From the IMG/VR virus record IMGVR_UViG_3300045988_179945, positions 1 through 64,000 of that record: 64,000 nucleotides of DNA; one strand, given 5' to 3'. The stretch is from a virus. Positions 14,401 through 42,626 of this stretch are shown here, piece by piece. A program made the translations under genes and the position numbers. A model generated the notes under the pieces. That model was not told where the DNA came from and did not search any database. It saw nothing but the letters and a program-made list of their open reading frames with translations. Numbering within the stretch: position 1 is the first letter of the stretch; each line of letters begins with the position of its first letter.

Positions 14401-14422
14401 TATACTGGAATCGTCCACAAAA
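14401..14422 (+). promoter_or_regulatory. conserved promoter/operator motif copy (plus orientation)
   Basis: TATACTGGAATCGTCCACAAAA. Confidence 0.7.
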
Positions 14423-17523: not shown

Positions 17524-18294
17524 ATGAACGAAGGAACCTACGGGTTGGAAACCATAAAAGCCGACTATCATACGATACTCGGCTACGACATCGGATACGT
17601 CACGGCGGAATCATACCCACTGTTCGCCCCATACCGTGCGAAAGACAAGCAGACATTCTCGGGACGAGTACCACGTCTGTTAAGCATCATCATCACCACG
17701 CTCGTCAACACTCCCAGCCGCGAATGGAATGCGGAAACCAGAACCCTCACCATCGGAGAGGACTTCTTCTATCTGGCGAACAAATGCGGGTTGAACAGTG
17801 GCGGCGACGGACGAACCACGGTACATGACCGACTGCTCATGCTCACCGAAATACAGTTCACCGACATGGATGGGAACAAGGTAACTCCCGTGTCGCATAC
17901 GGACATCAGCCCGGATTTCCTGACAGTCGAGCATCGTAGAATCACATTCACGGAGCAGTTCGTCCGTATGATGACAAGAAACGTCCGCCAGCTTCCACTG
18001 AAGTGCCTGTATCCGAACGCGGGAAGCGCCATCGGCATCGACCTGCTCGTGTTGTCCGCATTGTATTGTCCGGAAAACCATCGTCTCATCATCGAGCGTG
18101 AAGACCTTTCGTCATTGCTTCCGGCGAGCAGTCAGAGCCTTTCCACGCAAAGCCTGTTGAAGAGGTTCAAGGAGTTGAACGACAGTCAGAACGAGTGGAC
18201 GTACCGGATGACGAAGCACAGTGTGACCATCAGTCCGTTCGGCGTGTACTCGTCCGAAGATGCGATACGTTTACGTCGTAAAAACCGGTCTTGA
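17524..18294 (+). CDS. hypothetical protein (256 aa), possible plasmid initiator-like protein
   Basis: TAAGGAG RBS; no firm motif, the Rep-like guess is weak. Confidence 0.5.
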   Translation: MNEGTYGLETIKADYHTILGYDIGYVTAESYPLFAPYRAKDKQTFSGRVPRLLSIIITTLVNTPSREWNAETRTLTIGEDFFYLANKCGLNSGGDGRTTVHDRLLMLTEIQFTDMDGNKVTPVSHTDISPDFLTVEHRRITFTEQFVRMMTRNVRQLPLKCLYPNAGSAIGIDLLVLSALYCPENHRLIIEREDLSSLLPASSQSLSTQSLLKRFKELNDSQNEWTYRMTKHSVTISPFGVYSSEDAIRLRRKNRS

Positions 18295-18356
18295 ATGCAA
18301 GAGAGGGGAGTCGGCCATCACGGTCGGCTCCCCTCAATGGTATTGGAGTTGGAAAC

Positions 18357-19076
18357 TTAGATTTTCAGCTCGTCAATGACGGAAAGGTCAACTCCGTCAC
18401 CCCAGTTATCGACAATCTTGCTCAGGTTCTTGCGCATTCCGATGGGGGACTGGTCGTCAACCGGACGTCCGAAATTCTTCTCCGGAGCGACCGCGTTCAA
18501 CACTGCGAACAGCAGGTTCGTCATATCCTTGCCCTGTGCGAACACAAGCGTCACCTCCGCTGCAATCATGCCCGGCTCGGCGGTGGTCAATCCCTCCAAG
18601 GCGGACGTGAAATCGGAGATTCGGCGTTGGTTCTTCGGTTCGGTCAACGCGTCCAGCACGGCTTCCGGAGTGCTCTTCTTCGTGTCGGTCAACGCTTTGG
18701 CGAGGGCAATCACACGCTCATCGTCCAACGATTTGATGAGGGGAATGAGCTTCTTTCCGAACTGTTCCTCGATATGCGGCATGGTTTTTTCACGAGGTTT
18801 ACGGTTTGCACGAACCTTGGATTTGCCTTTCGGCTTGTCTTCCGTTTCGGTCGGCTCGTCAGTCGCGCCAACAGACTCATCGTCGGCTGGCGTCGGAGTC
18901 TCGGCTGCGGAATCCACGCCGTCCTGAACAAGCCCGGACACAGGCTGTTCCTCTTCGGCGGGAGACTGCTCCGGTTCGAAATAATTGCCGGAACCATAAC
19001 CGTTGTTCTGCTCCGACTGTTGGTTGTTGTTGAAACCCCAATTGGTGAAGTCTGGCATCATACCTTCTTTCGTCAT
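18357..19076 (-). CDS. hypothetical protein with Q/N/G-rich acidic N-terminus (239 aa)
   Basis: convergent with 17524-18294 and sharing an imperfect hairpin between them. Confidence 0.5.
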   Translation of the reverse strand: MTKEGMMPDFTNWGFNNNQQSEQNNGYGSGNYFEPEQSPAEEEQPVSGLVQDGVDSAAETPTPADDESVGATDEPTETEDKPKGKSKVRANRKPREKTMPHIEEQFGKKLIPLIKSLDDERVIALAKALTDTKKSTPEAVLDALTEPKNQRRISDFTSALEGLTTAEPGMIAAEVTLVFAQGKDMTNLLFAVLNAVAPEKNFGRPVDDQSPIGMRKNLSKIVDNWGDGVDLSVIDELKI

Positions 19077-19139
19077 CCAGCGAACACTCCGGTCAGACAG
19101 GTTGTTAGTAGTCGGAACGAGGTGTTCTGTATTTTCAAT

Positions 19140-20060
19140 TTACGAGTGTAACGGCTTTCGCCATTCCAAAACAGAGAAAACGGGAAACAACCCTCCCTTC
19201 CAAGCCGGTAGGTTCCACCCGAAAAACGGAACCAAGAGAAAGAGTCCGATGGCGGGAACGAAAAAAACAGGAACGACGATTAGGGCATCGCCTGAAGAAG
19301 AACAGGGCAAGCCGTCCGCCGCGCCGGTAGGTCAGCATGAACAGCGGACTTCAAAAAAAGAGAGAAGAAACCACACTGAAAACAAAAATCCAAGAACACC
19401 ATGCCATCAAAAAGAAGAACCAAGAAAAACAGAAAAGAAGAACCAAAAGAATAAAACCCGATAGGAAAAAGAGACCACATCAGAAGAAAAGAAGACAGCA
19501 ACGACACAATCAAGAAAGAACACCGGTACAAGAGAAAAAAGAACAGAGGACAACGGCAGAACAAGAAGAACAATCCATACCGTAAATCAGGACACGACGT
19601 AACTAAAGAACCAAACGCAGAGCAACCAGCCACCACAAGACAACAGGACAAGCGCATACGACCCAGCAGAGAAGAAAAAGCACAGCACCAAACACTCGAA
19701 GAGCATAAGGCGACAAACAAAAGAACCACAAGGCAACAGGACGCAACAGACAAAAGCCCACACAGAAGAACAGACTGCAAAAACACTCGACAGCAAAAAC
19801 GCAAACAGCAGAAAGCCACGCCACATAAGACGGCAACAAACCCAGAGAAGAAAGAACCGGCACGCCAGCAACCACATCACAATCGCAACAACGCCCCACA
19901 CAGCCAACCAGACAACAAAAAGGTCAATAGTCACACCAACAAGGTCAACAACAAACAAAACAAGGTAACATCAATACAGGAACAGCCAATGCAATGAAAA
20001 AGCAACAGCAGAACCAACCAAAAAACCAAATATCAAAAACTATAAATGCCAGAACTTGGA
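19140..20060 (+). other. about 900-bp T-depleted (A+C-rich) tract on + strand
   Basis: + strand almost devoid of T by eye over 19340-20060; non-coding; only a lysine/arginine-rich low-complexity ORF (19337-19585) and Cys/Leu/Phe-rich antisense ORFs. Confidence 0.7.
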
Positions 20061-20095
20061 CAAAACCGTGAACGTTCCGATGAAAACAACGGAAC

Positions 20096-21310
20096 ATGAC
20101 CCATCAGGAGGCGGTCTTATTGGAAAAACGGACGATTTCCCTGATAATCGGCTCCGGAGGGCTACTTACGACCATTAAAAAAGCCCTCACAAGAGTCGGA
20201 AACATGCGCTGGCAGGTACCCGCCGCAGACAACATCCAAGCTCAGGCCGACTATCTGGTCAGACACCCGGTACCATCCGGGTTCAAAGGAATCATCTTCA
20301 CCGACAGGGCAGGAAACTGGCTTCCGATAGCGAACGCCGGTTACATCGTCTACTGGTGCGACACGGGACAGATACCTGTGGGAACCATGGGCATGAGCGA
20401 GCAGATGCTACGGATGAGCGTGGCTGATTTCGCCCACGCATATTGGGGAATCCAACTTGCCGACAAGCGTCTTGTGGTAGATATTCTCCAAAACAAGGTG
20501 AAGGAGACTGCGGTTCTCCTACCCATCACATCCAACACTGGAGGCGTCGGGAAAACCACTTCCAGCAGACAGCTGGCAGACCGTGCGTCACAGGCCGGAC
20601 TGCGTGTCCTACTCATCGACGGCAACATTCGCCAGTCCAGCCAACGTAGCTTCTTCGACCCGAAACAGGACAAGCCGTTGCATACGATAGCCGACTGGCG
20701 ACCGGGCATGCAAGCGCAGGTCGGAGCCAATCGCGGACGCAATCTCGGAGTTCCCTACGATATTTGTTTCGCACCTCCGGCAGGTGTCGGAGTGGACTGG
20801 CAGATATACCGTCAGTACATTCAGGCGGCTAGGCGGTTATGGGATTTCGTGGTGCTCGACCTCGACCGAATCAGCGCGGACGACTTGGACGACAGGGAGA
20901 ACATAGCCAACGGTCTGCTTCTCCCGTACATTCAGGCTGGCGACCCTTGTCTGGTCATCGTCAAGGCCGGAAGACAGACGCAGATTGACGCGTTGAATCT
21001 GCTGACCGCGATGGCGGAGCATCATCTTCCGAAGGAACTCATCGGAATCAAAGACACGGTTCCGGTCGGACTGCAAGACTATCGGCGACTCGACTACACG
21101 CGGTACGGAACGTTCCTCGGAACCGAATACCAGACGGTGGAGGCGAGCAACCATATCGCCAACGGTGATATCCGATGGGATGACCCCGGGCTTGCCTTCG
21201 CACGGGAAAACATTCTCAACTGGGCGTTGCCCGACCGTGGCTTCAATCCTGACAGGTTCAATCCGAACGCGAACGACGATGACAGAAGGAAAGGTCGTGG
21301 ACGCAGATGA
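20096..21310 (+). CDS. ParA/MinD-family ATPase (CpaE/VirC1-like)
   Basis: deviant Walker A TSNTGGVGKTTSS; first gene of a transfer-type operon with overlapping start/stop codons. Confidence 0.6.
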   Translation: MTHQEAVLLEKRTISLIIGSGGLLTTIKKALTRVGNMRWQVPAADNIQAQADYLVRHPVPSGFKGIIFTDRAGNWLPIANAGYIVYWCDTGQIPVGTMGMSEQMLRMSVADFAHAYWGIQLADKRLVVDILQNKVKETAVLLPITSNTGGVGKTTSSRQLADRASQAGLRVLLIDGNIRQSSQRSFFDPKQDKPLHTIADWRPGMQAQVGANRGRNLGVPYDICFAPPAGVGVDWQIYRQYIQAARRLWDFVVLDLDRISADDLDDRENIANGLLLPYIQAGDPCLVIVKAGRQTQIDALNLLTAMAEHHLPKELIGIKDTVPVGLQDYRRLDYTRYGTFLGTEYQTVEASNHIANGDIRWDDPGLAFARENILNWALPDRGFNPDRFNPNANDDDRRKGRGRR

Positions 21311-22503
21311 CTTTCGATGACCGGTACCTGTTTGACCCGAACGACGAGAATCTTTGGAAGACCGGAAGCATTGCCGACTGGTATAAAGGCAACGACATGT
21401 ACGAGATGGAGCATCCCGGACTGTTCGCGCAAACGCACCCGTGGTTCGTAGCCAACAAACTGTTCGCGGAGACGATGGTCAAAGCGAACAGCGAACTCGT
21501 GTCAAGCATCCTTGGCGCTTTGTTCACATGGAAGACCTGCACGGTTGACCAGTTGCGTGCAGGACTTTCCATCAAAGGTGCTCCCGCTTTCGAACGTGAA
21601 GAGCCGAACCTGTATGGGGCGATGAACCGTTTGGGAATCATCAACGTCGGCTTCAGTCAAGCGGAACGCCTTTACGGCAAAACCGTGAACCATGTTTGGC
21701 TGTCCCCATCGAACAGTCCACGACTCATCAACCGTGCGATGAAAACGTACGGCATGGAGAAGTGGATGCGTGAGACAATGGCAGCTTCCTATTATGCGGG
21801 AAACCGTTTCCATGTACGCCATAACACCTATGCGGCGCACGCGGGATTGATGCTGGCCCGCGACTCCCGCGTCAGGTTTTCCTCCGGCGACGGTTGGGGA
21901 AAATTCCGTAGCGTTGACCCACAGGCGGTTGCCGAGTCGAAAGTCGGCAAGGCGTGCGCGACCGACGTGGTCACACTGTGCCGCAACAACGTGCTTGCCG
22001 GTATCGAAATCCAAACGTCGAACAGCGAATTGGACAGGAAGATGCAGAACTGGGCGAAGATGCTCGCCTACTCTCCAATGAAACGTCGCGGTCTCATCTG
22101 CGTATGGTTGCAGATACCCAAAGCGAACGAAGGGTATGAATCGTTCAACGCGGTGGTGCAGCGTACGCAGGGTATGACGGAAATGGTCGTAGGCAATCCG
22201 ACCGTTTCGCAAAGAATGGGAGTCGCGGTCTGGGATGAATGGTTCGAGCATAGTGTCCCGACCGGCAGGTTCGGCGACTACACGGACATGAGCGGAATTC
22301 GCCGCAACATTTTCTCCGACGAGTGGACGCAATACACTCCGCAGGTTCGCGACGTTCGCAAAGTCAGCGAATGGGGTTGGGATGTGACTCGCGACATCAT
22401 AAAAAAGGATTGGGGCTGGGATGTTTCCGGCTGGACAATGCCGGAAGCATACCGTGGCGGCTTCTACGGTTTCATCGGAAAGGATTGTGATGGCCTCCAC
22501 TGA
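21307..22503 (+). CDS. hypothetical protein (398 aa), possible DNA-processing component
   Basis: ATGA overlap with the upstream gene; no confident relaxase motifs. Confidence 0.5.
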   Translation: MTFDDRYLFDPNDENLWKTGSIADWYKGNDMYEMEHPGLFAQTHPWFVANKLFAETMVKANSELVSSILGALFTWKTCTVDQLRAGLSIKGAPAFEREEPNLYGAMNRLGIINVGFSQAERLYGKTVNHVWLSPSNSPRLINRAMKTYGMEKWMRETMAASYYAGNRFHVRHNTYAAHAGLMLARDSRVRFSSGDGWGKFRSVDPQAVAESKVGKACATDVVTLCRNNVLAGIEIQTSNSELDRKMQNWAKMLAYSPMKRRGLICVWLQIPKANEGYESFNAVVQRTQGMTEMVVGNPTVSQRMGVAVWDEWFEHSVPTGRFGDYTDMSGIRRNIFSDEWTQYTPQVRDVRKVSEWGWDVTRDIIKKDWGWDVSGWTMPEAYRGGFYGFIGKDCDGLH

Positions 22504-22951
22504 AGAATCATTTCAACAGACACAAGAAGCGTTGGATACGGCGAGACTGGAACGGGCGCGAGCATTGCAACAGGTTCAGACATTATGCGAGACGGGACGC
22601 AGACATTTGGTCATTCCGTTTCTGATGGCTAACATGCAGCGCGTTCCCTCGTTACGGAAAATACGACTCTGGCAATTGGATTCGATAATGTTCAACACTT
22701 CCAGACGGGTTGCGAACAAGACCATCCGTATCATGCGTGAGACCATCAACGATGATTCGAGCGTGAACGACGGGTACGTGACTTTGGGCTGGGCGTTGGA
22801 GTCGAAGGAGAAAACCGTCCGTATGACGACGTGGCTTCTTCAATTGTCATTGCGCGAGAAGCTTTCCACTTTCCAAAAGCCGGAAGGCTTCCCATATGCG
22901 CCGTTATATCAGCAAAGCACAGACGACCAACAGAAAGAAGGTAGCGCATGA
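22490..22951 (+). CDS. hypothetical protein (about 153 aa)
   Basis: AAGGA RBS; overlaps neighbours. Confidence 0.4.
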   Translation: MASTEESFQQTQEALDTARLERARALQQVQTLCETGRRHLVIPFLMANMQRVPSLRKIRLWQLDSIMFNTSRRVANKTIRIMRETINDDSSVNDGYVTLGWALESKEKTVRMTTWLLQLSLREKLSTFQKPEGFPYAPLYQQSTDDQQKEGSA

Positions 22952-25608
22952 GCGGCCAGAACTGGTATCAGATAACCAGAACATTGCAACAGCTTGACGC
23001 GGACGAGCAACGTTCGAAAGTGGAGAGCATTCCCGCCGAACTGGACGGTTGCACATTGCTCCTCATCAAGAAAGGCGAGGAGCCGGTCAAGGAATACATT
23101 TACGGCGACGGCGAGGGAATCATCAACGCCGGACAGTTGGCTGGATTCGACGCGAAACTGGTCGAAGACGATGATGGGCCGGTGTTGCCGGACGGTGTGG
23201 ACAGTGCGGCGCATCCTCTCGTCCCGTTCCGTGCCCGGTTGAATTCGAAAAGCAACATGGAAAAAATGCGGACGAACTATTCCGGCATTCGCACAAGCAT
23301 CGAGAAGGTCATGCCGCCGGACAGTTACGTGAGCGTCACCCTCCGCAATCAGGGATACTTCGAACAGATACGCGTCCGCAATTGGATTAGCGACGAATAC
23401 AATACCGTCGAGGATTCAAGCGAACTCGCTTCAACCAACACGATGTGCGCCCGAGTGAGTTTCGGCTGTAGACAGGCTTCCCGCAACCGGCAGCTTGCGC
23501 AGAAGATTGGCCAAATCATCTGTCCGCTCATATCCAACATGTCAAGTCATACGAGCCGTCCGAAGTTCGGGCTGCTGTTCGTCGGCATGTTGCTGGAAGC
23601 GTTGTCTTTGATTTGGAGCGTGTGCGGTCTTGCAAGAGGATACGTGATGGATGGCGTGTTCCCGCTGTTTCATTCCGCTTGGGGTTTCGGCGTGGCTCTT
23701 CCACTGCTTGCTGTGACATTGGTAGCGTTCCTGCTCCTAATGCTGCTGTCATGCATTCCGTTCGTCTATCTTCCGCGACCTCAGATTGCGGGAGTGTCCG
23801 TTGCCTTCGCCTTTTACCTGCTGTTGGGGCTGCTTCCTCTCCCCACGTTCGTTCCGGTTCTTCTCATCCCTCTTCTCGTATTCGCGTTCATCCGTTGGAG
23901 GAACTGGACGCTGTGGGATGATATTTTCCAGACTCCGCGCAGATATTATGCGATTGCGAACGACCGTGGCGCGAACGATTCCGACAACCATACGCGTCTT
24001 GGCGTCAGAACGAAGGAGTCGCGCGTATCCGCTTACGGTGCGCAGAGAACCACGTTGATTCTTCCTCCGATTATCGTAAGCTCCGTGTTCACCCCGGTCA
24101 CTCAGGGAGTGGCGATGAAACAGGAATTGCATCCCGTTCCGGAAGTGTTGGCGCATGACGGTATCTTCCTTGGAAAGGACGATACCGGACGTGACTGCTA
24201 TCTCGATCCGTCGCAACTGTTCGGCGGTATCGCAATCAACGGCGAGGCCGGTTCCGGCAAGACGGTGCTCACTCATGGCATCAGCCAGTGGGCCATCAGC
24301 GCACGCGAGACCACCAGTCCGAAAATCTGGGGACGCGACTCGCGTATCATCCACTTCTGGATGAAGGATGATACGGGAGTGAACGTGTTGGAACGTTACC
24401 GTAAACACCACGGTTTCACCAGTCCGCAACGCGTCGTCTATTTGGCCGACCCGAACAGTGTGTGCTTGGACATGCTCGGCATGAAGGATGGAAACAATGC
24501 CATGGAGACTGCGGCGAGCGTTGCCAAGACCATGCGCTACTCGTTCGACGACGGCGACATTCTCAATGATTCGCAGAACATCATCACCCAAGCGTTGACC
24601 ATCGGCGTGGCGGTTGACCGTTACGTGCAGGAGGAACGCAAACGCAATCCCGACTCCAACGACGCGGGTTGGGAGAGTGAGATTGTGAAACGCTGCCATC
24701 AGCTCGAACAATCTTATCCGGGTGCGGAACAGTTACGGATGCAGTTGAGTCCAATCGGATGGGCAGTCGTCGCATTGTGTGGCTCCGACGGTCAGGCGGG
24801 TTCCGCCAAAGCGTTGGGGCATGTGTGCCGCGCGTTGACCATGGAGTTGAAAAGCGGCTACATGTTCGATGAGATGACGCATGCCGCCCGTGCCGCCGAA
24901 CAATTGTATGGCCGTCCTGATGCTGCCGGACATACGGTTCGTTCCGACCGTGACATTCTCGCCAAGACTAACGCCTCGTTGAACAAGGTGAACCAGTTCC
25001 TTCCCATCGAACACATGTTCACGGCACGTCGCGGCAGAGTGACTTGGACGAACATTCTCGACCATGCCGGAGACTACCACATCGTTCTCGCGCCGCATGA
25101 GGGTTATTCGCTGCCGGAACGTATGGATAAGATTCTCGGCGGATGGCTCATGTACCGTTTCTGGAACACGGTGTTCTCGCATTGCAAGGATTGGGACAAG
25201 GCTGGAAAGTGGACGATGCTTGTATGTGACGAGCTAAGTCTGCTGGCGAACGGCAATGATGGCATCATGCCCGCCTTGCGTGAGCAGGGTCGTTCGTTCG
25301 GATTGCTTCTCGTGTTCGCCACTCAGTATCCGACGCAGTTGTCATATGCGATGTTGGATTCGTTCATCGGCTATTCGACGTTCATCACATACAATACGAC
25401 GATTCCCCGTATAGCCGACATGACGGCGAAACGTCTGACGAACAATGATGGCGAGGATGGCTGGCGTTCCGGCGCGGTCATGAACCTTCCGCGTTATGCG
25501 GCGGCTGTGCGAACGCGCACTCAGGAGCAGTTGCAGCCGACGTTCCTTGTCCATGTGCACGATTTCGATGACGGCTATCGTGATGGCGACGTGGAGGAGG
25601 ATGACTAG
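22948..25608 (+). CDS. FtsK/VirD4/TraG-like T4SS coupling ATPase (DNA translocase)
   Basis: about 4 TM helices (residues about 210-330) then P-loop INGEAGSGKTVLTHG, Walker B MLVCDE, LLVFATQYP motif. Confidence 0.7.
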   Translation: MSGQNWYQITRTLQQLDADEQRSKVESIPAELDGCTLLLIKKGEEPVKEYIYGDGEGIINAGQLAGFDAKLVEDDDGPVLPDGVDSAAHPLVPFRARLNSKSNMEKMRTNYSGIRTSIEKVMPPDSYVSVTLRNQGYFEQIRVRNWISDEYNTVEDSSELASTNTMCARVSFGCRQASRNRQLAQKIGQIICPLISNMSSHTSRPKFGLLFVGMLLEALSLIWSVCGLARGYVMDGVFPLFHSAWGFGVALPLLAVTLVAFLLLMLLSCIPFVYLPRPQIAGVSVAFAFYLLLGLLPLPTFVPVLLIPLLVFAFIRWRNWTLWDDIFQTPRRYYAIANDRGANDSDNHTRLGVRTKESRVSAYGAQRTTLILPPIIVSSVFTPVTQGVAMKQELHPVPEVLAHDGIFLGKDDTGRDCYLDPSQLFGGIAINGEAGSGKTVLTHGISQWAISARETTSPKIWGRDSRIIHFWMKDDTGVNVLERYRKHHGFTSPQRVVYLADPNSVCLDMLGMKDGNNAMETAASVAKTMRYSFDDGDILNDSQNIITQALTIGVAVDRYVQEERKRNPDSNDAGWESEIVKRCHQLEQSYPGAEQLRMQLSPIGWAVVALCGSDGQAGSAKALGHVCRALTMELKSGYMFDEMTHAARAAEQLYGRPDAAGHTVRSDRDILAKTNASLNKVNQFLPIEHMFTARRGRVTWTNILDHAGDYHIVLAPHEGYSLPERMDKILGGWLMYRFWNTVFSHCKDWDKAGKWTMLVCDELSLLANGNDGIMPALREQGRSFGLLLVFATQYPTQLSYAMLDSFIGYSTFITYNTTIPRIADMTAKRLTNNDGEDGWRSGAVMNLPRYAAAVRTRTQEQLQPTFLVHVHDFDDGYRDGDVEEDD

Positions 25609-30783: not shown

Positions 30784-31137
30784 ATGGAAGAGGTAGGAAA
30801 CCAAGCCGCCGATACCGCCGGGCAAACATTGGGCGACGTGCTCACCGTGTTCTTCTCATGGGTGTTCACGCCGACTGGCGCAATCCTCACACTGTTGATG
30901 ATTATTATTTGCGCTGGCAGCGCCGTGTTCGCCATCTTGCAGAAAAGCACTCGCGCGTTGATGACAGCGTTGACCATTTGCGCGTTCCTGCTGTTCGTGT
31001 GGATTATCACCGGCGTGCTGGAAGTGATGGGATTGCCGGTACGTCAGTGGATGCAGGATGTCGCGGCTCAATTGCCGGATATCGGCTCGCTGTTCATGGA
31101 GTTCCTGCGCCGTCTGGTGTTCACCGCGACTGAATAG
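30784..31137 (+). CDS. small membrane protein (117 aa, pilin-like)
   Basis: two TM helices. Confidence 0.45.
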   Translation: MEEVGNQAADTAGQTLGDVLTVFFSWVFTPTGAILTLLMIIICAGSAVFAILQKSTRALMTALTICAFLLFVWIITGVLEVMGLPVRQWMQDVAAQLPDIGSLFMEFLRRLVFTATE

Positions 31138-31321
31138 TTTTCGTCGCCGGACTTTCGGATGCCGTGTCCGTTTTTCTGCGGGCACGGCATTTTGTTTTCC
31201 TGTTTCGCCGTTCAGCCTGTATGCCGGTTCGCCGTTTTGTCGGAACGTTGATGGAAATGGTTTTATGGTTCGGCGTGCCGACTGTTCCACGTTGTTATCC
31301 TTGATTACGAATCCATACCCC

Positions 31322-31346
31322 CACTATGGTTTCGTCCACACCGAAA
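31322..31346 (+). promoter_or_regulatory. degenerate promoter motif copy upstream of parA
   Basis: CACTATGGTTTCGTCCACACCGAAA. Confidence 0.4.
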
Positions 31347-31366
31347 GCCGAAAAAGGAACACAGGC

Positions 31367-32029
31367 ATGAGAATCAAAAACGATACGGTCATCATCACCG
31401 TCGCCATCATCAAGGGCGGTTCAGGCAAAACCACTACGGCAATGGCATTGGCCGAACTGTTGCACAAGCGCGGCGAACAAGTCACGGTCTTGGATTCCGA
31501 CAACACGGGCGGCGCGACCATGTGGGAAATGTACGTCGAACAGGAAAACCGGCGACGTAAAACAGAAAACCCAGACGCGGAAGACTATCATCTCGGATTC
31601 CCCGTCGTGCAGACCAATGAGGCCGTATTGAACAATCCCGAACTCATCCGTGAAAAATATTCCGGCTGGGTCATCATCGACACCCCGCCATCCGACGCCG
31701 GTGTCGTACAGGCTGCGATAAACGCGGGAGACGTGGTGATAATCCCATGCCAGCCGTCCGTCTCCGATTTAACCCATGCCGGACGCACGTATGCGGCGGC
31801 ACGAAACGGCATCGTCCTGCTGACCCGCGTGAAACCGCGAACGAAACTCGCCCGCAACAGCATCAGCGAACTCGACGAGGAAGGCATCGCACGATTCGAA
31901 ACCGTCATCACGGAACGTGAGGCCATCAAGAACATGTATGGCACGACCGAAATCGACAACAAGGAGTATTCCAGCGTCGTGCATGAACTCATCGACTATC
32001 TGACGGCAATCAATCTGGTGGAAGAATAA
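31367..32029 (+). CDS. parA: ParA partition ATPase
   Basis: KGGSGKTT deviant Walker A at N-terminus; AAGGA RBS. Confidence 0.85.
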   Translation: MRIKNDTVIITVAIIKGGSGKTTTAMALAELLHKRGEQVTVLDSDNTGGATMWEMYVEQENRRRKTENPDAEDYHLGFPVVQTNEAVLNNPELIREKYSGWVIIDTPPSDAGVVQAAINAGDVVIIPCQPSVSDLTHAGRTYAAARNGIVLLTRVKPRTKLARNSISELDEEGIARFETVITEREAIKNMYGTTEIDNKEYSSVVHELIDYLTAINLVEE

Positions 32030-32678: not shown

Positions 32679-33272
32679 ATGTTGGTAAAGGAATGGGCCA
32701 GACTGGAAGGATTGCATCCGCAGACCGTGTGGAAATGGTGTCGTCAGGGCACCATGCCCGTTCCTGTGGAGCAGACGCCCACAGGCATGTGGCTCATCCA
32801 CGACCCGAAATACGAGACAGCATCGCAGCTGAATCCTGCGGATTCTCGCACCGTCTGCTACGCGCGAGTGTCCAGCGGCGACCAAAAGAACGACCTGCAA
32901 CGTCAGGCCGACCGGTTAAAAGCGTTCGCTCTTAGCATGGGCGTCGAACATCCCGAAATCGTCACGGAGACGGGTTCCGGCATGAACGACAAGCGACGCA
33001 AGCTCAACCGGCTATTGTCCGACCCGACCGTCGGCACGATAATCGTGGAGCATCGCGACCGGCTCGCCCGCATGAACATGGGACTCGTGGAGAGCGCGTT
33101 GAAGGCGCAGGGACGCCGAATCATCGTGGTGGATGACACGGAGCTGGATGACGATTTGGTACGCGACATGACCGAGGTGCTGACCTCGTTCTGCGCGAGA
33201 CTGTACGGACGCCGCGCAGCCAAACACCGTGCGGAGAAGGCGTTGGAGGCGATGCGCGATGAGCGCGTATGA
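32679..33272 (+). CDS. tnpA: IS607-family serine recombinase TnpA
   Basis: MerR-like HTH at N-terminus, catalytic VCYARVSSGDQ motif. Confidence 0.8.
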   Translation: MLVKEWARLEGLHPQTVWKWCRQGTMPVPVEQTPTGMWLIHDPKYETASQLNPADSRTVCYARVSSGDQKNDLQRQADRLKAFALSMGVEHPEIVTETGSGMNDKRRKLNRLLSDPTVGTIIVEHRDRLARMNMGLVESALKAQGRRIIVVDDTELDDDLVRDMTEVLTSFCARLYGRRAAKHRAEKALEAMRDERV

Positions 33273-34581
33273 GGCCGTTAGAATTCGGCTCGACCCAACC
33301 CCACGGCAGACACGGCTGTTGGAGTCCCATGCGGGTGGTGCGCGTTTCGCGTACAATCTGATGCTCGCGCACGTCCAGCGCCAAATCTCCTTGGGTGAGA
33401 AACCGGACTGGACGTTGTACGCGATGCGCCGCTGGTGGAACGAGTGGAAGGACGAAATCGCCCCGTGGTGGCGAGAGAACAGCAAGGAGGCGTATAGCAG
33501 CGCGTTTGAATGGCTGTCCCAAGCGTTGAGGAACTGGTCGGACAGCAGGAAGGGCAGGCGTGCGGGACGTAGGGTGGGCTGGCCGAAATACAAGTCGAAA
33601 CGCTCCAGTGTCCCGCGTTTCGCATACACGACCGGCAGCTTCGGCCTTATCGAGGACGACCCGAAGGCGTTGAAACTGCCACGCATCGGACGCGTACACT
33701 GCATGGAGAACGCCACCGAACGCGTCCACGGCAGACGAATCGTGCGCATGACCGTCAGTCGCCATGCGGGCTTCTGGTATGCGGCCCTCACCGTCGAACG
33801 TCCCACCGAAAGCGTTCCAGCGAAAAACAGAAAACAGGAGAACCGTAATCGTCAGGTCGGCGTGGATTTGGGCGTCAAGACCCTCGCCACCCTATCGGAT
33901 GGCACCACGTTCCCCAATCCACGCAACTACGTCCGCACGCAACGGAAACTCCGCCATGCCCAACAGTCGTTGAGCCGCCGCGATAGGGGCATGAACCATG
34001 GATGCGGGTCGAAACGGTACAACAGGGCGTTGGAGCGTGTGCGCCGAATCCACGCTCGCATAGCCGCCCAACGAGCCGACAACATCAGCAAGCTCACCAC
34101 ATGGCTTGCCGACAATTATTCCGACATCAGCATCGAAGACCTCAACGTGCAAGGCATGAGCCATAACAGGAGGCTTGCCAAACACATACTGGACGCGGAC
34201 TTCCACGAGTTCCGCCGCCAACTGACCTACAAGACCGCACGCACCGGCACGAGGCTCCATGTCATCGACCGCTGGTATCCAAGCTCGAAGACCTGCTCGG
34301 ACTGTGGGACGGTGAAAGCCAAGCTGTCCCTGTCCGAGCGTGTCTACCATTGCGAGGAGTGCGGGCTTGTCATCGACCGTGATGTGAACGCGGCCATCAA
34401 CATCCAAGTCGCCGGGAGTGCCCCGGAGACGTTAAACGCGCGTGGAGGAAGCATAAGACAGGCCCGCCCAAAAGGTGGGACAATGCGGCATCCGGCGAAA
34501 CGCGAACCAAGCGGCGGCGAGAGTCGCGTGAGACTTGGAGCTGGCCTTGGCAACGAGGCCATGCAGATGACTTCGCTCTAG
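33259..34581 (+). CDS. tnpB: TnpB (IS605 OrfB family RNA-guided nuclease homolog)
   Basis: OrfB N-terminal domain, RuvC-like core, C-terminal zinc finger CSDCG...CEECG; overlaps tnpA. Confidence 0.85.
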   Translation: MSAYEAVRIRLDPTPRQTRLLESHAGGARFAYNLMLAHVQRQISLGEKPDWTLYAMRRWWNEWKDEIAPWWRENSKEAYSSAFEWLSQALRNWSDSRKGRRAGRRVGWPKYKSKRSSVPRFAYTTGSFGLIEDDPKALKLPRIGRVHCMENATERVHGRRIVRMTVSRHAGFWYAALTVERPTESVPAKNRKQENRNRQVGVDLGVKTLATLSDGTTFPNPRNYVRTQRKLRHAQQSLSRRDRGMNHGCGSKRYNRALERVRRIHARIAAQRADNISKLTTWLADNYSDISIEDLNVQGMSHNRRLAKHILDADFHEFRRQLTYKTARTGTRLHVIDRWYPSSKTCSDCGTVKAKLSLSERVYHCEECGLVIDRDVNAAINIQVAGSAPETLNARGGSIRQARPKGGTMRHPAKREPSGGESRVRLGAGLGNEAMQMTSL

Positions 34582-41411: not shown

Positions 41412-42626
41412 CTACTCGATGATTCTCATTGCCTCATCCCGAATATTCCGGGCGGCGTTCACGTCACGGTCATGCAACACTCCACATGATGGGCACGCCC
41501 ATTCGCGGACGCTTAAATCCTTGACCAGAGGATTCTTGTAACCGCAGTCGTGGCATAGTTGACTGGACGGATACCATTTGCCCACATGAACCAACCGTTT
41601 GCCTTGACGGGCGAGCTTGTATTCCAACATGGTGCAGAACATGCCGTACCCGTTGTCCGACGTGCTTTTAGCCAAACCTTTTCTGGCTTTGCGACCATTG
41701 GGAAGATAATGTCCCTGACGTTCGGGGTCTGGTTTCGGCTCGGGTTTCTTCATCATGCTTTTCATGCTCAGAGCCTCCACGCCGACCATATCGTATGATG
41801 CGACAATCCTGTCGGCTTTCTTATGCTGGTAGTCGCGTCTTTGATTGGCGGTCTTCTCATACAGTCGGGCGACCCGCTTGCACTGTTTACGCCAGTTGGC
41901 GGAACCTTTGACCATATGGGAAAGCTTGCGTTGCTCTCTGGCGAGCTTGTCCTGCATTTTTCGATAGTATCCCGGATATTCGGCGTGCTCCCCGTCACTG
42001 GAAACATACAGGCCGTGAGACGCGTAGTCCAATCCGACAGTCTTCACCGGCCTCACTTTTTCGGGTATTTGGGTCTCGTACTCGAAAAGGATTGTCGCGG
42101 TGTATCTTCCGGAAGGGCAATGCTCCACGGTGACGGATTTCAGTTTCCAATCGTCGGGGATACGCTTGTGTTGGCGGACCGCCAACCATCCGAGCTTGGG
42201 TAGTTTCAACCTCCTTGCCTTGTCATCCAATTCGATGTTGCCGTGGGACAGATTCGTCGTGTATGTCTTCCTGCCCCGACGTTTCGACTTGTACTTCGGA
42301 AAACCTGTTTTCCTGTCCTCGAAGAACCTCTTGTACGCCTTCTCCAATGCGAGTTGCGCGTTGCAAAGAGCGAAGCTATCCACTTCGCGTAGGAACGGGT
42401 ACGTGTCCTTGTACAGGGCGGGCGTGGGACGGCATGATTCCCATGTGGCCTGATAGTGGGCGATGCGGGTTTCGAGCATGAGGTTGTATACGAAGCGTGC
42501 GCAGCCGATGGTGCGGTCTATCAGCCGCGCCTGTTCTTCGGTGGGATATGCGCGGAACCTCACGGCGATATGTGTCTTCATGCTTGGGTTCGGCTCTTCT
42601 CGCCTTGGTTCTCGATGTATTTGCAT
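41412..42626 (-). CDS. tnpB: TnpB (IS605 OrfB family)
   Basis: OrfB domain plus C-terminal zinc finger CHDCG...CPSCG. Confidence 0.85.
   Translation of the reverse strand: MQIHREPRREEPNPSMKTHIAVRFRAYPTEEQARLIDRTIGCARFVYNLMLETRIAHYQATWESCRPTPALYKDTYPFLREVDSFALCNAQLALEKAYKRFFEDRKTGFPKYKSKRRGRKTYTTNLSHGNIELDDKARRLKLPKLGWLAVRQHKRIPDDWKLKSVTVEHCPSGRYTATILFEYETQIPEKVRPVKTVGLDYASHGLYVSSDGEHAEYPGYYRKMQDKLAREQRKLSHMVKGSANWRKQCKRVARLYEKTANQRRDYQHKKADRIVASYDMVGVEALSMKSMMKKPEPKPDPERQGHYLPNGRKARKGLAKSTSDNGYGMFCTMLEYKLARQGKRLVHVGKWYPSSQLCHDCGYKNPLVKDLSVREWACPSCGVLHDRDVNAARNIRDEAMRIIE

Follow-up and report, generated by a model that had tools for sequence, protein, structure and literature searches.

The described systems closest to the locus analyzed here are rut leaders, UP elements and other A-tract or poly(dA:dT) DNA, the transfer origins (oriT) of plasmids with MOBC relaxases (TraX of pAD1, MobC of CloDF13), the oriented words associated with FtsK-like motors (KOPS of FtsK, SRS of SpoIIIE, TRS/clt of Streptomyces TraB), and H-DNA. 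MOBC relaxases combine a winged helix with a PD-(D/E)XK nuclease fold, and pAD1 TraX is reported to bind 5 direct repeats located 70-120 bp from nic (PMC12857230). In the Bifidobacterium megaplasmid pMP7017, the replication origin lies near repB (PMC8313286), and for its family, a 34-bp regulon promoter motif has been published; megaplasmids of this type have been reported from about 10% of the gut metagenomes of infants and mothers (PMC10832533).

Here we describe, in a relative of pMP7017, a non-coding tract of about 750 bases that nearly lacks T on one strand (T 0.05 versus 0.21 across the whole window) and shares only part of its properties with each of these systems. Like rut leaders, it is a long, untranslated and unstructured stretch ahead of a large operon, with C exceeding G in the window (C.26, G.20) and most relatives; however, the C/G ratio is 0.8-1.0 in the lineages L006, L013 and L014 and in the 49% group, the lack of structure is not universal, and the tract apparently lies upstream of the -10 element of the operon rather than in its transcript. 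Rut sites, moreover, are not defined by absence of U. Like UP elements and poly(dA:dT) DNA, the tract immediately precedes a core promoter, is rich in A on the non-template strand and would act, if at all, via composition rather than sequence. It differs in its length (100-1000 bp versus 20-60 bp), in excluding T, whereas UP elements use both A- and T-tracts, and in the composition of L011, where the tract is not A-rich (A 0.29-0.31, C 0.38-0.39). There is no structural periodicity either: A-runs do not exceed 7 nt and show no 10-11 bp phasing, and curved DNA was rejected given that the summed A-tract spectral power for periods of 10-11 bp is 16.6, where the null model has a mean of 25.3. With the KOPS, SRS and TRS words, the tract shares strand-polar, T-free or T-poor, purine-rich words and the presence of FtsK-like motors, but a scan of 12 lineages for a shared 8-mer, with one mismatch allowed, found none in excess within the tract body. 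The purine/pyrimidine asymmetry (68% purine) between divergent promoters is reminiscent of H-DNA; nevertheless, the longest purine run is 18 nt, mirror repeats are absent, and C makes up 26% of the 'purine' strand, so that triplex formation was rejected.

The T-depleted tract and its genomic setting

The window, that is, the whole 64-kb stretch of DNA analyzed (positions 1-64,000 of the IMG/VR record IMGVR_UViG_3300045988_179945), is a relative of pMP7017 from a gut setting. The ParA-like protein is 58% identical to its pMP7017 homolog, the gene order is the same on both flanks, and the core of the 34-bp family motif occurs 18 times against 0.33 expected; by these syntenic backbone genes and the family motif, the window is assigned to the pMP7017-family megaplasmids of Bifidobacterium. 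Loci 99% identical to the window were found on human-gut contigs of 160-190 kb, and a scan of genome contigs yielded no relatives. To our knowledge, pMP7017-type megaplasmids are the only conjugative plasmids of Bifidobacterium. The replication origin was considered as a function of the tract and rejected because, in pMP7017, it is located elsewhere, near repB (PMC8313286).

The tract fills the gap between a divergent gene for a 239-aa protein and the operon that starts with the ParA-like gene (Table 1), as stated in the first-pass annotation. That annotation described an almost T-free plus strand between 19140 and 20060, and counting bears this out: the composition of this interval is A 47.4%, C 26.0%, G 19.4% and T 7.2%, T drops to 5.7% in 19340-20060, and the AT skew reaches +0.88. 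The left limit was slightly generous, given that 19140-19215 is ordinary sequence holding the probable promoter of the divergent gene. At its greatest extent, the T-poor segment covers 816 bp (19215-20030, T 5.4%), and the tract proper stops at about 19960, where a conserved promoter block starts. The lowest 300-bp window contains 2.7% T (at 19605); for the whole 64 kb, the median is 20% and the 1st percentile 8.3%. No other tract of this type exceeds 300 bp in the 64 kb, where the remaining stretches poor in T or A measure 150-260 bp, and no second non-coding tract of this kind was found in the window or in the 190-kb pMP7017. The tract contains 6 -10-like hexamers compared to 32 expected at equal GC content with A=T. 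Its composition is nearly the same as that of the short 5' UTRs of the plasmid (A.543, C.201, G.199, T.057), which hints at a constraint at the RNA level. The island of T-containing sequence inside the tract is nearly invariant in the alignment of the 99% identical relatives. A scan of the window detected no family regulon motif beside the tract.

Table 1. Features of the locus (coordinates in the window)
Feature	Position	Strand	Description
Divergent 239-aa gene	18357..19076	-	Always the left neighbor of the tract
P_left, probable core promoter of the divergent gene	19137..19150	-	TACACT (19150->19145), TAAATT (19142->19137)
Left boundary element	19211..19233	+	Inverted repeat GGTTCC-N11-GGAACC beside a degenerate GC-rich block
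T-depleted tract	19215..19960	+	A 0.485, C 0.263, G 0.200, T 0.052; non-coding, non-repetitive, indel-rich, sequence poorly conserved
T-containing island inside the tract	19570..19608	+	CGTAA(A/C)T twice, 18 bp apart
Right block: transfer-operon control region and 5' UTR	19916..20119	+	Conserved
Direct repeats AAGGTCA/AAGGTCA/AAGGTAA	19920..19968	+	Starts at 19920, 19941 and 19962; spacing exactly 21 bp
P1, operon promoter: probable -10 hexamer TAACAT	19966..19971	+	At the 3' edge of the tract
Conserved block CTATAAATGCCAG	20040..20052	+	pMP7017 version: TCTAAATCAGTCG
Hairpin/inverted repeat GTTCCG-N10-CGGAAC	20074..20095	+	In the 5' UTR of the operon
ParA/CpaE-like P-loop ATPase, operon gene 1	20096..21310	+	Likely true start TTG 20120
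398-aa protein, operon gene 2	21307..22503	+	N-terminal winged helix and PD-(D/E)XK nuclease fold
886-aa membrane ATPase	22948..25608	+	Weak FtsK/SpoIIIE-like match

Neighboring genes and flanking elements

None of the neighboring proteins of 239, 398, 176, 886 and 1344 aa gave family hits, and the 239-aa protein has no fold match either. The likely start codon of the ParA-like gene is preceded by a Shine-Dalgarno (SD) sequence, AGGAGG, at 20106-20111. The domain architecture of the 398-aa protein is that of MOBC relaxases (PMC12857230), which makes it a candidate relaxase, although no sequence similarity to relaxase families was found; this architecture lends indirect support to the 'oriT-proximal' placement proposed in the first-pass annotation. 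The 886-aa ATPase is presumed to be an FtsK/T4CP-like coupling protein; its pMP7017 counterpart is annotated as 'AAA family ATPase', and FtsK/SpoIIIE-domain proteins are encoded on pMP7017-type plasmids. The conjugation gene cluster of pMP7017 spans about 45 kb, with the operon encoding the ParA-like protein, the nuclease and the coupling ATPase at its head.

The tract appears to occupy the DNA between two back-to-back core promoters, P_left and P1, which were placed by their -10-like hexamers, no clear -35 element being found. P_left would drive the 239-aa gene, and P1 would drive the operon. In every lineage, a minus-strand TANNNT is located 26-103 nt upstream of the divergent start codon; alignment of the window with L003 and L004 shows the P_left block to be conserved, with TAGATT in L004 at the same alignment position. 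Likewise, every lineage contains, at the 3' edge of the tract, one plus-strand TANNNT 102-172 nt upstream of the codons for the conserved SLIIG motif, in the form of TAACAT, TATCAT, TAATAT, TAATCT or TACAAT, usually in the context GG-TAWYAT-CA. At the left edge of the tract, five lineages lack a plus-strand TANNNT within 300 bp.

The left edge is marked in all lineages by GC-rich CCCGCGCCG-type repeats. In the window, a second copy of GCCGGTAGGT occurs at 19322-19331, and a GTTCC-N-GGAAC repeat is present on both sides of the tract; conservation of this repeat outside the subfamily of the window was not found. On the right, the control block is 92% identical to that of L003, compared to 87% for the ParA gene and 61% for the tract center (shuffled baseline 60-61%). 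The 21-bp-spaced repeats, the third of which (19962) overlaps the -10 hexamer of P1, are a candidate operator or relaxase-binding site; they are conserved in L003, L004 and L038, and pMP7017 carries a GTTAAT pair, also 21 bp apart, at the equivalent place. The hairpin in the 5' UTR covaries, that is, relatives differ in sequence at the same place while pairing is kept, with the arms TTATTGGA/TCCAATAA in L006, TCTGA/TCAGA in L008 and TTCCGG/CCGGAA in B. longum. Another strong hairpin, at 18303-18335, lies upstream of the locus.

The conserved block at 20040-20052 is -10-like on the minus strand and could be a leftward promoter. Transcription from 20037-20044 (TATAGT) would yield an A-free, U/G-rich antisense RNA across P1, a long, terminator-rich leader of the divergent gene in a layout that might be compared to prgX/Anti-Q of pCF10. 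On the minus strand, the CTATAAAT block reads TATAGT, TAGATT, TAGAGT, TAGTTT or TATATT in 5 of about 9 lineages, and 5 of the 6 terminator-like sites in 18900-20300 are on that strand. However, the hexamer is not conserved in L006, L011 and L013, the total number of terminator-like sites does not exceed that in shuffled sequences (6 versus 3.6 +/- 2.1), and in every lineage, the divergent gene has its own promoter-like hexamer near the start. We consider such a transcript highly improbable.

Conservation of composition and turnover of sequence

About 80 syntenic loci, with ParA identity down to 44-49%, were compared, and in nearly all of these, a T-poor tract (T 2.7-7.8%, ~100-1065 bp) lies on the sense strand of the operon, the polarity being always the same. 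The tract is present in 13 of the first 15 syntenic loci, being weak in L005 and L009, and in all 62 metagenomic loci with enough upstream DNA (T 2.9-7.8%, 163-807 bp). Neither the sequence nor the length nor the proportions of A, C and G are conserved: across lineages, A varies from 0.29 to 0.55 and the C/G ratio from 0.8 to 1.6, and T depletion alone is universal. Hence the label 'A+C skew' given to the tract at first is accurate for the window (A+C 75%) but does not name the property that relatives conserve, whereas the suggestion made at the same time, that homologous plasmids might conserve the skew and not the sequence, holds. A blastn search of the tract against plasmids produced no match. 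A ParA-like homolog from Paenarthrobacter has an upstream gap of 115 bp without a tract.

Evolution of the tract is no slower than that of synonymous sites, and the promoter blocks on either side are conserved. Identity to L003 at the center of the tract is at the 60% shuffled baseline, compared to 70% at codon third positions; per-site polymorphism in three comparisons is 0.119, 0.193 and 0.107 in the tract versus 0.129, 0.109 and 0.027 at ParA third positions; and 26-28% of the alignment columns in the tract are gapped. Even relatives that are 99% identical differ by tract indels of 8, 55 and 79 bp. Per T site, the rate of T loss is 3.9 times that at third positions (16/63 versus 16/197, p=7e-4), and T is gained at the same rate, which counts in favor of an actively maintained composition. 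We infer that base composition rather than sequence is under selection in the tract; the selective reasons considered below are proposals.

Functionless low-complexity DNA, expanded by slippage and kept T-poor by local strand-biased mutation or repair rather than by selection, would account for part of these observations, namely, substitution at or above the neutral rate, frequent indels between short direct repeats, length polymorphism of A-runs among B. longum plasmids, the tenfold range of length between lineages and the weakness of the tract in two loci; the faster loss of T could equally reflect a mutation bias. However, if mutation were biased regionally, other non-coding DNA would be expected to show it too, so the uniqueness of the tract in both the window and pMP7017 counts against this explanation. 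Furthermore, in about 80 loci, the tract has stayed at one syntenic position although its sequence was replaced completely, the rate of T gain is normal, and duplication alone copies Ts and cannot purge them. Accordingly, we regard a purely mutational origin as quite unlikely.

Coding potential, structure and motifs

The ORFs in the tract had been judged unlikely to be ordinary coding sequence, and our analysis agrees. In principle, the tract might encode a low-complexity basic protein, either the 82-aa K/R-rich ORF at 19337-19585 or the 372-aa ORF of L011; gene callers do call ORFs in T-poor tracts, and pMP7017 has an annotated antisense CDS. However, 3-base periodicity is absent from the tracts of 11 lineages (chi-square p>0.14, compared to p~1e-13 for the flanking genes), the window tract contains stops in all three frames (12, 3 and 10), no ORF is conserved between close relatives, and the indels are not multiples of three. 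ORFs in or across the tract arise as artefacts because its composition yields few stop codons, and a protein-coding tract is, for practical purposes, refuted.

The plus strand had also been considered unable to form A-T paired hairpins and suggested to be 'deliberately unstructured'. The former is correct for the window (-2 to -10 kcal/mol per 150 nt versus -44 +/- 10 window-wide), and plus-strand RNA is unstructured in 9 of 12 lineages. The latter was rejected as a conserved property because the T-poor tracts of L013 (-31.7), L011 (-21) and L085 (-18.6 kcal/100 nt) fold at near-background levels.

The tract is not a tandem or simple repeat: TRF reports only a weak 8-mer with 5.6 copies, and the direct repeats within the tract are two-copy families. 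A protein landing region, another early proposal, found no support in that no motif array was detected in the tract. A dispersed ACAGG/AACAGGA motif is enriched relative to first-order shuffles but is explained by a maximal-order Markov model and is mostly a signal from L008; among 8-mers, enrichment is confined to the family of the GC-rich CGCGCCGC block, which lies at the left boundary. An enhancer of the VirC1/overdrive type was discarded as well: the core TGTTTGTT (AACAAACA on the plus strand) occurs once, at 19950, which is chance level, given that 49% of shuffled sequences carry at least one copy. A search of Rfam 15 with 18800-20400, on both strands, gave no match at E<=1.

A composition-constrained spacer or a single-strand signal

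The reading that we prefer, with a probability of about 0.35, is that the tract is a silent spacer of 'negative design' within the region that controls the transfer operon and that probably is also the oriT region. With the two core promoters both directed away from it, the tract most likely belongs to neither mRNA and, judging from the positions of the hexamers, presumably is not transcribed. A T-poor strand lacks signals that require A and T on one strand, or U in the sense RNA. Thus, -10 hexamers for sigma-70 on both strands, U-tract terminators, start codons, stop codons and palindromic sites containing A and T would all be excluded, which is why such DNA can be read as a silent spacer. 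The sequence would be free to change provided that the near-absence of T on the operon-sense strand, and of A on the other, is kept; the spacer would grow and shrink by slippage between short direct repeats and would be tolerated only while it stays free of stray promoters and ORFs that could de-regulate a costly operon. The conservation of T depletion but not of sequence and the scarcity of -10-like hexamers count in favor of this model. Several points count against it or limit it. Strict strand polarity is not required, given that an A-poor plus strand would serve promoter avoidance equally well, and could be explained only if growth occurs by local duplication. Among the Ts that remain, contexts that could form promoters are not avoided to any additional degree: a specific shortage of the TA steps needed for -10 hexamers (63 versus 124 expected) was rejected because it equals the plasmid-wide depletion of TA (rho(TA) 0.51 in the tracts versus 0.48-0.54 plasmid-wide). 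The model also gives no reason for keeping any spacer. Finally, the resemblance in composition to the short 5' UTRs of the plasmid, with its hint of a constraint on RNA, speaks against the model.

Somewhat less probable is that the tract is a composition-encoded cis element that is read as a single strand, either a U-free RNA or an A-free DNA strand, with selection acting to keep one base off a given strand rather than on sequence. In the RNA version, a U-free RNA that is untranslatable, non-terminating and mostly unfoldable would gate the roughly 45-kb conjugation operon; in the DNA version, an A-free leading end or polar loading track would be handed to the MOBC-like relaxase and the FtsK-like coupling motor.

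The RNA version calls for a U-poor, A-rich rightward transcript, a very long leader or long non-coding RNA of the transfer operon, started at the left edge by a promoter that is non-canonical or depends on an activator. Such an RNA would carry no start or stop codons and no intrinsic terminators, would be unstructured in most lineages and free of ribosomes, and could gate the operon, for example, via Rho or an RNA-binding factor. It fits with the T-poor strand always being the sense strand of the operon, with the match to the 5' UTRs of the plasmid (T 5.7% versus 5.2% in the tract), with C exceeding G and the plus strand being unstructured in most lineages, and, suggestively, with the 2.3-fold depletion of the strong SD cores GGAG and GAGG. 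However, neither C excess nor lack of structure is universal, and NTG start codons are not depleted beyond the depletion of T itself. The upstream position of the tract with respect to both promoters, together with the five lineages that have no TANNNT at the left boundary and the -10-like hexamer at the 3' end, argues against an ordinary long transcript, so the long non-coding RNA suggested in the first-pass annotation gains no support. Transcripts arriving from upstream should be stopped by the 18303-18335 hairpin, Rfam offers no match, and the ncRNAs reported in the pMP7017 transcriptome paper number only two, both of which map to other parts of the plasmid and not to this locus. Overall, we find the RNA version unlikely.

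The DNA version, to which we give similarly little credence, holds that the gap contains oriT and that the tract works as a single strand in conjugative DNA processing. The tract would be either the first transferred stretch, with the A-free, T/G-rich minus strand leading if the transfer genes enter last, or a polar loading track for the relaxosome and the coupling ATPase; in both cases, function would depend on the identity and base composition of the strand but not on its sequence. Like MOBC transfer origins, the tract adjoins genes for a winged-helix PD-(D/E)XK nuclease and a coupling ATPase, preceded by the ParA-like gene at the operon head, and its intergenic region contains direct repeats and a covarying inverted repeat; strand polarity is strict despite complete sequence turnover. 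In addition, plasmid typing labels pMP7017-type plasmids 'non-mobilizable', although pMP7017 is called conjugative in the papers on it. Unlike the MOBC systems, the candidate 398-aa protein resembles no relaxase family in sequence. The unstructured strand is not kept in L013, L011 and L085, an oriented 8-mer of the KOPS/SRS/TRS kind is missing, and tract length varies tenfold. We know of no T-depleted tract at any oriT, and a literature search found none.

The locus comprises a delimited control region at the head of the transfer cluster, with two proposed promoters, operator-like repeats, a covarying hairpin and a candidate MOBC-like relaxase. Between the promoters, one base is kept off one strand family-wide amid complete sequence turnover, an unusual constraint of which we found no comparable description in the literature. 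If this constraint has a mechanistic reader, be it RNA, single-stranded DNA or RNA polymerase, the tract would clearly exemplify, for bacteria, a cis element defined by composition alone, and either single-strand version, if true, would represent a type of signal, for regulation or processing, that has not been described on plasmids. On the practical side, the ORFs that gene callers place in T-poor tracts are spurious.

Composition of the gap

The gap between the gene for a 239-aa protein and the divergent ParA-like gene (Table) is occupied by a tract whose plus strand is strongly depleted in T. The first-pass annotation described this strand as almost free of T, and the counts bear this out: between 19140 and 20060, A accounts for 47.4%, C for 26.0%, G for 19.4%, and T for 7.2% of the bases, and T drops to 2.7% in the lowest 300-bp window, compared with a median of 20% across the window. 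The tract itself (A.485, C.263, G.200, T.052) is the sole such stretch longer than 300 bp within the 64 kb. Inside it, a T-containing island is nearly unchanged among those relatives whose ParA is 99% identical. Both the whole window and pMP7017 are strongly depleted of the TA dinucleotide (observed/expected 0.48-0.54).

Features of the gap and its surroundings (window coordinates unless a record is named)
Feature	Position	Strand	Remarks
Left-hand gene	17524-18294	+	convergent with the 239-aa gene
GC-rich hairpin, 14 bp	18303-18335		fold z-score -5.4; no clean U-tract on either side
239-aa gene	18357-19076	-	divergent from the operon
-10-like hexamers, 239-aa gene	TACACT 19150-19145; TAAATT 19142-19137	-
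CCCGCGCCG-type repeats	19190-19233; 19312-19331		left edge of tract
Maximal T-poor segment	19215-20030	+	816 bp, T 5.4%
T-containing island	19570-19608		CGTAA(A/C)T twice, 18 bp apart
AAGGTMA repeats	19920-19968	+	AAGGTCA, AAGGTCA, AAGGTAA; exactly 21-bp spacing
Putative -10 hexamer, operon	TAACAT 19966-19971	+
Inverted repeat GTTCCG-N10-CGGAAC	20074-20095	+	just upstream of the ParA-like ribosome-binding site
ParA-like gene	20096-21310	+	from ATG 20096
Shine-Dalgarno AGGAGG	20106-20111	+	perfect; in-frame TTG 20120 8 nt later
Second ParA gene	31058-32029	+	MipZ/VirC1/CbiA matches
TnpB genes (OrfB_IS605/Cas12f-like TNB)	33229-34581; 41412-42626	+; -	IS200/IS605 type
Regulon motif, examples	2131-2149; 14401-14419; 54176-54194	-; +; +	each oriented toward the next gene
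ORFs in or antisense to T-poor tracts	L011 2870-3988; pMP7017 record 53034-53309; L005 2863-3788		pMP7017 ORF, WP_172685975.1; most likely spurious
Gap in L005	2621-4000		B. callitrichidarum contig; 1380 bp

T depletion is conserved among relatives, the sequence is not

The window is related to pMP7017, a Bifidobacterium breve megaplasmid: the two ParA-like proteins are 58% identical, and the gene order is alike on both sides. The promoter motif specific to this family and published for pMP7017 (PMC10832533), TATACTGGAATTGTTCACA, occurs 18 times in the window versus 0.33 expected, in each case directed at the next gene; the 5' UTRs that come after the copies are short and A-rich (A.543, C.201, G.199, T.057). 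Human-gut metagenome contigs of 160-190 kb carry loci in which ParA is 99% identical.

A blastn search of the tract against 72,556 plasmids gave no match; the syntenic gap in pMP7017 and in B. longum plasmids is likewise T-poor on the sense strand of the operon. We compared 14 further syntenic loci (ParA identity from 94% down to 44%) and 77 metagenomic loci. A T-poor tract is present in 13 of the first 15 loci, being weak only in L005 and L009, and in every one of the 62 metagenomic loci whose upstream DNA was long enough, with 2.7-7.8% T over about 100-1065 bp. The comparison with homologs proposed in the first-pass annotation came out positive, with the skew kept and the sequence not. The proportion of A in these tracts varies between 0.29 and 0.55 and the C/G ratio between 0.8 and 1.6 (the L011 tract is C-rich, not A-rich); therefore sense-strand T depletion is the sole universal property. 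In the 190 kb of pMP7017, the tract is the only non-coding stretch of its kind, the other sense-strand T-poor stretches lying within large surface-protein genes. In a Paenarthrobacter plasmid encoding a distant ParA-like homolog, the upstream gap is 115 bp long, without a tract. In L005, where the tract is almost missing, the gap instead contains the regulon promoter motif (TATACTGATTATGTCCACA) and, after it, a small ORF.

Compared with L003, a locus with an 87% identical ParA gene (70% at codon third positions), the tract center is 61% identical, equal to the shuffled baseline (60%), and the right-hand 180 bp are 92% identical. Where ParA is 99% identical, the tracts can be aligned and show 8-, 55-, and 79-bp indels between short direct repeats. 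In three groups of close relatives (A, B, and C), polymorphism was 0.119, 0.193, and 0.107 in the tract, 0.129, 0.109, and 0.027 at ParA third positions, and 0.056, 0.049, and 0.065 in the conserved block to the right of the tract, with 26-28% of tract columns gapped in groups A and B. T gains are as frequent in the tract as at third positions (0.032 and 0.036 per non-T site; p=0.71), whereas T loss per T site is 3.9 times faster in the tract (16/63 vs 16/197; p=7e-4). Thus, the sequence is unconstrained while the composition is actively maintained, which could result from selection or from a local bias. A functionless by-product appears quite unlikely.

The tract is non-coding and lacks a shared motif

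The tract had been proposed to be non-coding, and this holds: the tracts of 11 lineages show no 3-base periodicity (p>0.14), compared with p~1e-13 in the flanking genes, and stops occur in all three frames, so that we give a coding tract next to no credence. ORFs in the relatives' tracts, such as that of 372 aa in L011, are artefacts of stop-poor composition; those annotated by gene callers or RefSeq likewise lack coding periodicity. A tandem repeat was ruled out, as was an array of shared motifs, the words enriched over first-order shuffles being explained by sub-words and one lineage. A scan of all 8-mers across lineages, with one mismatch allowed, found a single enriched family, the GC-rich CCCGCGCCG-type repeats, of which 1-3 or more copies border the left edge of the tract in every lineage (L001-L014). 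Phased A-tract DNA (10-11-bp band power below the null) and triplex-grade homopurine DNA (longest purine run, 18 nt) were rejected, Rfam had no match to the tract, and the overdrive core occurs in a single copy, at chance level.

Predicted promoters and boundaries of the gap

On the minus strand, TANNNT lies 26-103 nt upstream of the start codon of the divergent gene in every lineage. On the plus strand, each lineage has one TANNNT, 102-172 nt upstream of the SLIIG codon (a conserved ParA-like N-terminal position), at the 3' edge of the tract; the hexamers of other lineages are TATCAT, TAATAT, TAATCT, and TACAAT, the usual form being GG-TAWYAT-CA. Five lineages lack plus-strand TANNNT altogether within 300 bp at the left edge. 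By this layout, the tract seems to be located upstream of both predicted core promoters. A leftward antisense leader is improbable.

The third AAGGTMA repeat overlaps the putative -10 hexamer of the operon, and pMP7017 has a GTTAAT pair, also 21 bp apart, at the equivalent place; the repeats are a candidate operator or relaxase-binding site. The right block also includes a conserved CTATAAATGCCAG block. The inverted repeat of the window and its equivalents in L001, L002, L006, L007, and L008 differ in sequence and keep the pairing (GTTCCG/CGGAAC, TTCCGG/CCGGAA, TTATTGGA/TCCAATAA, TCTGA/TCAGA). An RNA element is one possibility, a co-evolving operator or oriT repeat another. The probable start of the ParA-like gene is the TTG rather than the ATG, and the pMP7017 protein starts at the aligned position (M-A-S-L-I-I-G). 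The GC-rich hairpin between the convergent genes should stop plus-strand transcripts coming from upstream and is probably a bidirectional transcript boundary.

Possible roles of the tract

In every lineage, the absence of T guarantees the exclusion of signals that depend on T plus A within a single strand, or on U in the sense RNA. One of these signals is the -10 hexamer in both directions (6 found versus 32 expected for equal GC and A=T); the others are start and stop codons, U-tract terminators, and A/T-containing palindromes. Together with the predicted promoter layout, this leads to what seems the most economical reading, that the tract is a silent spacer between promoters, free to drift and to change length while it stays blank (probability about 0.35). 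Three observations speak against a silent spacer: strand polarity is strict at all loci, the composition is nearly that of the short 5' UTRs of the plasmid, and the TA avoidance of the residual Ts does not exceed that of the plasmid overall (rho 0.51 vs 0.48-0.54). These keep a reader at the RNA or ssDNA level in play. We regard a U-poor sense RNA made from the tract as rather unlikely.

Explanations that rest on an unstructured single strand, as suggested in the first-pass annotation, fit the window, where plus-strand folding energies are -2 to -10 kcal/mol per 150 nt vs -44 +/- 10 window-wide, but fail as a universal rule: the tracts of L013, L011, and L085, with 3-8% T, fold at -31.7, -21, and -18.6 kcal/100 nt (background, -27 to -39). 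An excess of C over G is the hallmark of rut sites; it is not conserved among the relatives' tracts either. The tract resembles rut regions, UP or A-tract DNA, poly(dA:dT) promoter tracts, and oriT-flanking DNA but could not be assigned to any of these by their defining features. No description of a T-poor tract of this kind was found in the pMP7017 papers or the wider literature searched, and we file it with compositionally biased promoter-upstream or leader DNA, not in a category of its own.

The operon and a lead to oriT

The divergent 239-aa protein has neither a family match nor a fold match. The second protein of the operon (398 aa), for which a sequence-family search gave no match, has a confident predicted model (pLDDT 86) that combines a winged helix at the N terminus with a PD-(D/E)XK nuclease fold. 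MOBC relaxases are reported to have this architecture, among them pAD1 TraX, whose direct-repeat binding sites are 70-120 bp from nic (PMC12857230). Alongside the ParA-like ATPase and an FtsK/T4CP-like ATPase of 886 aa, this protein gives the operon head the look of a DNA-processing module; the gap would then be the expected place of oriT, which we treat as a lead. A strand-specific oriT function of the tract itself, consistent with its strict polarity, is rather unlikely. Plasmids of this family are typed 'non-mobilizable'; pMP7017 is conjugative according to the papers describing it.

The ParA-like gene of pMP7017 is the first of a co-directional cluster (~45 kb) that encodes an AAA ATPase, a 1252-aa protein, a second ParA, and pilin, sortase, and PrgA-like surface proteins. 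A second, more canonical ParA, which could be the actual partition ATPase, is encoded in the window ~10 kb farther downstream in the cluster. The window contains two IS200/IS605-type TnpB genes, and pMP7017 also has several.
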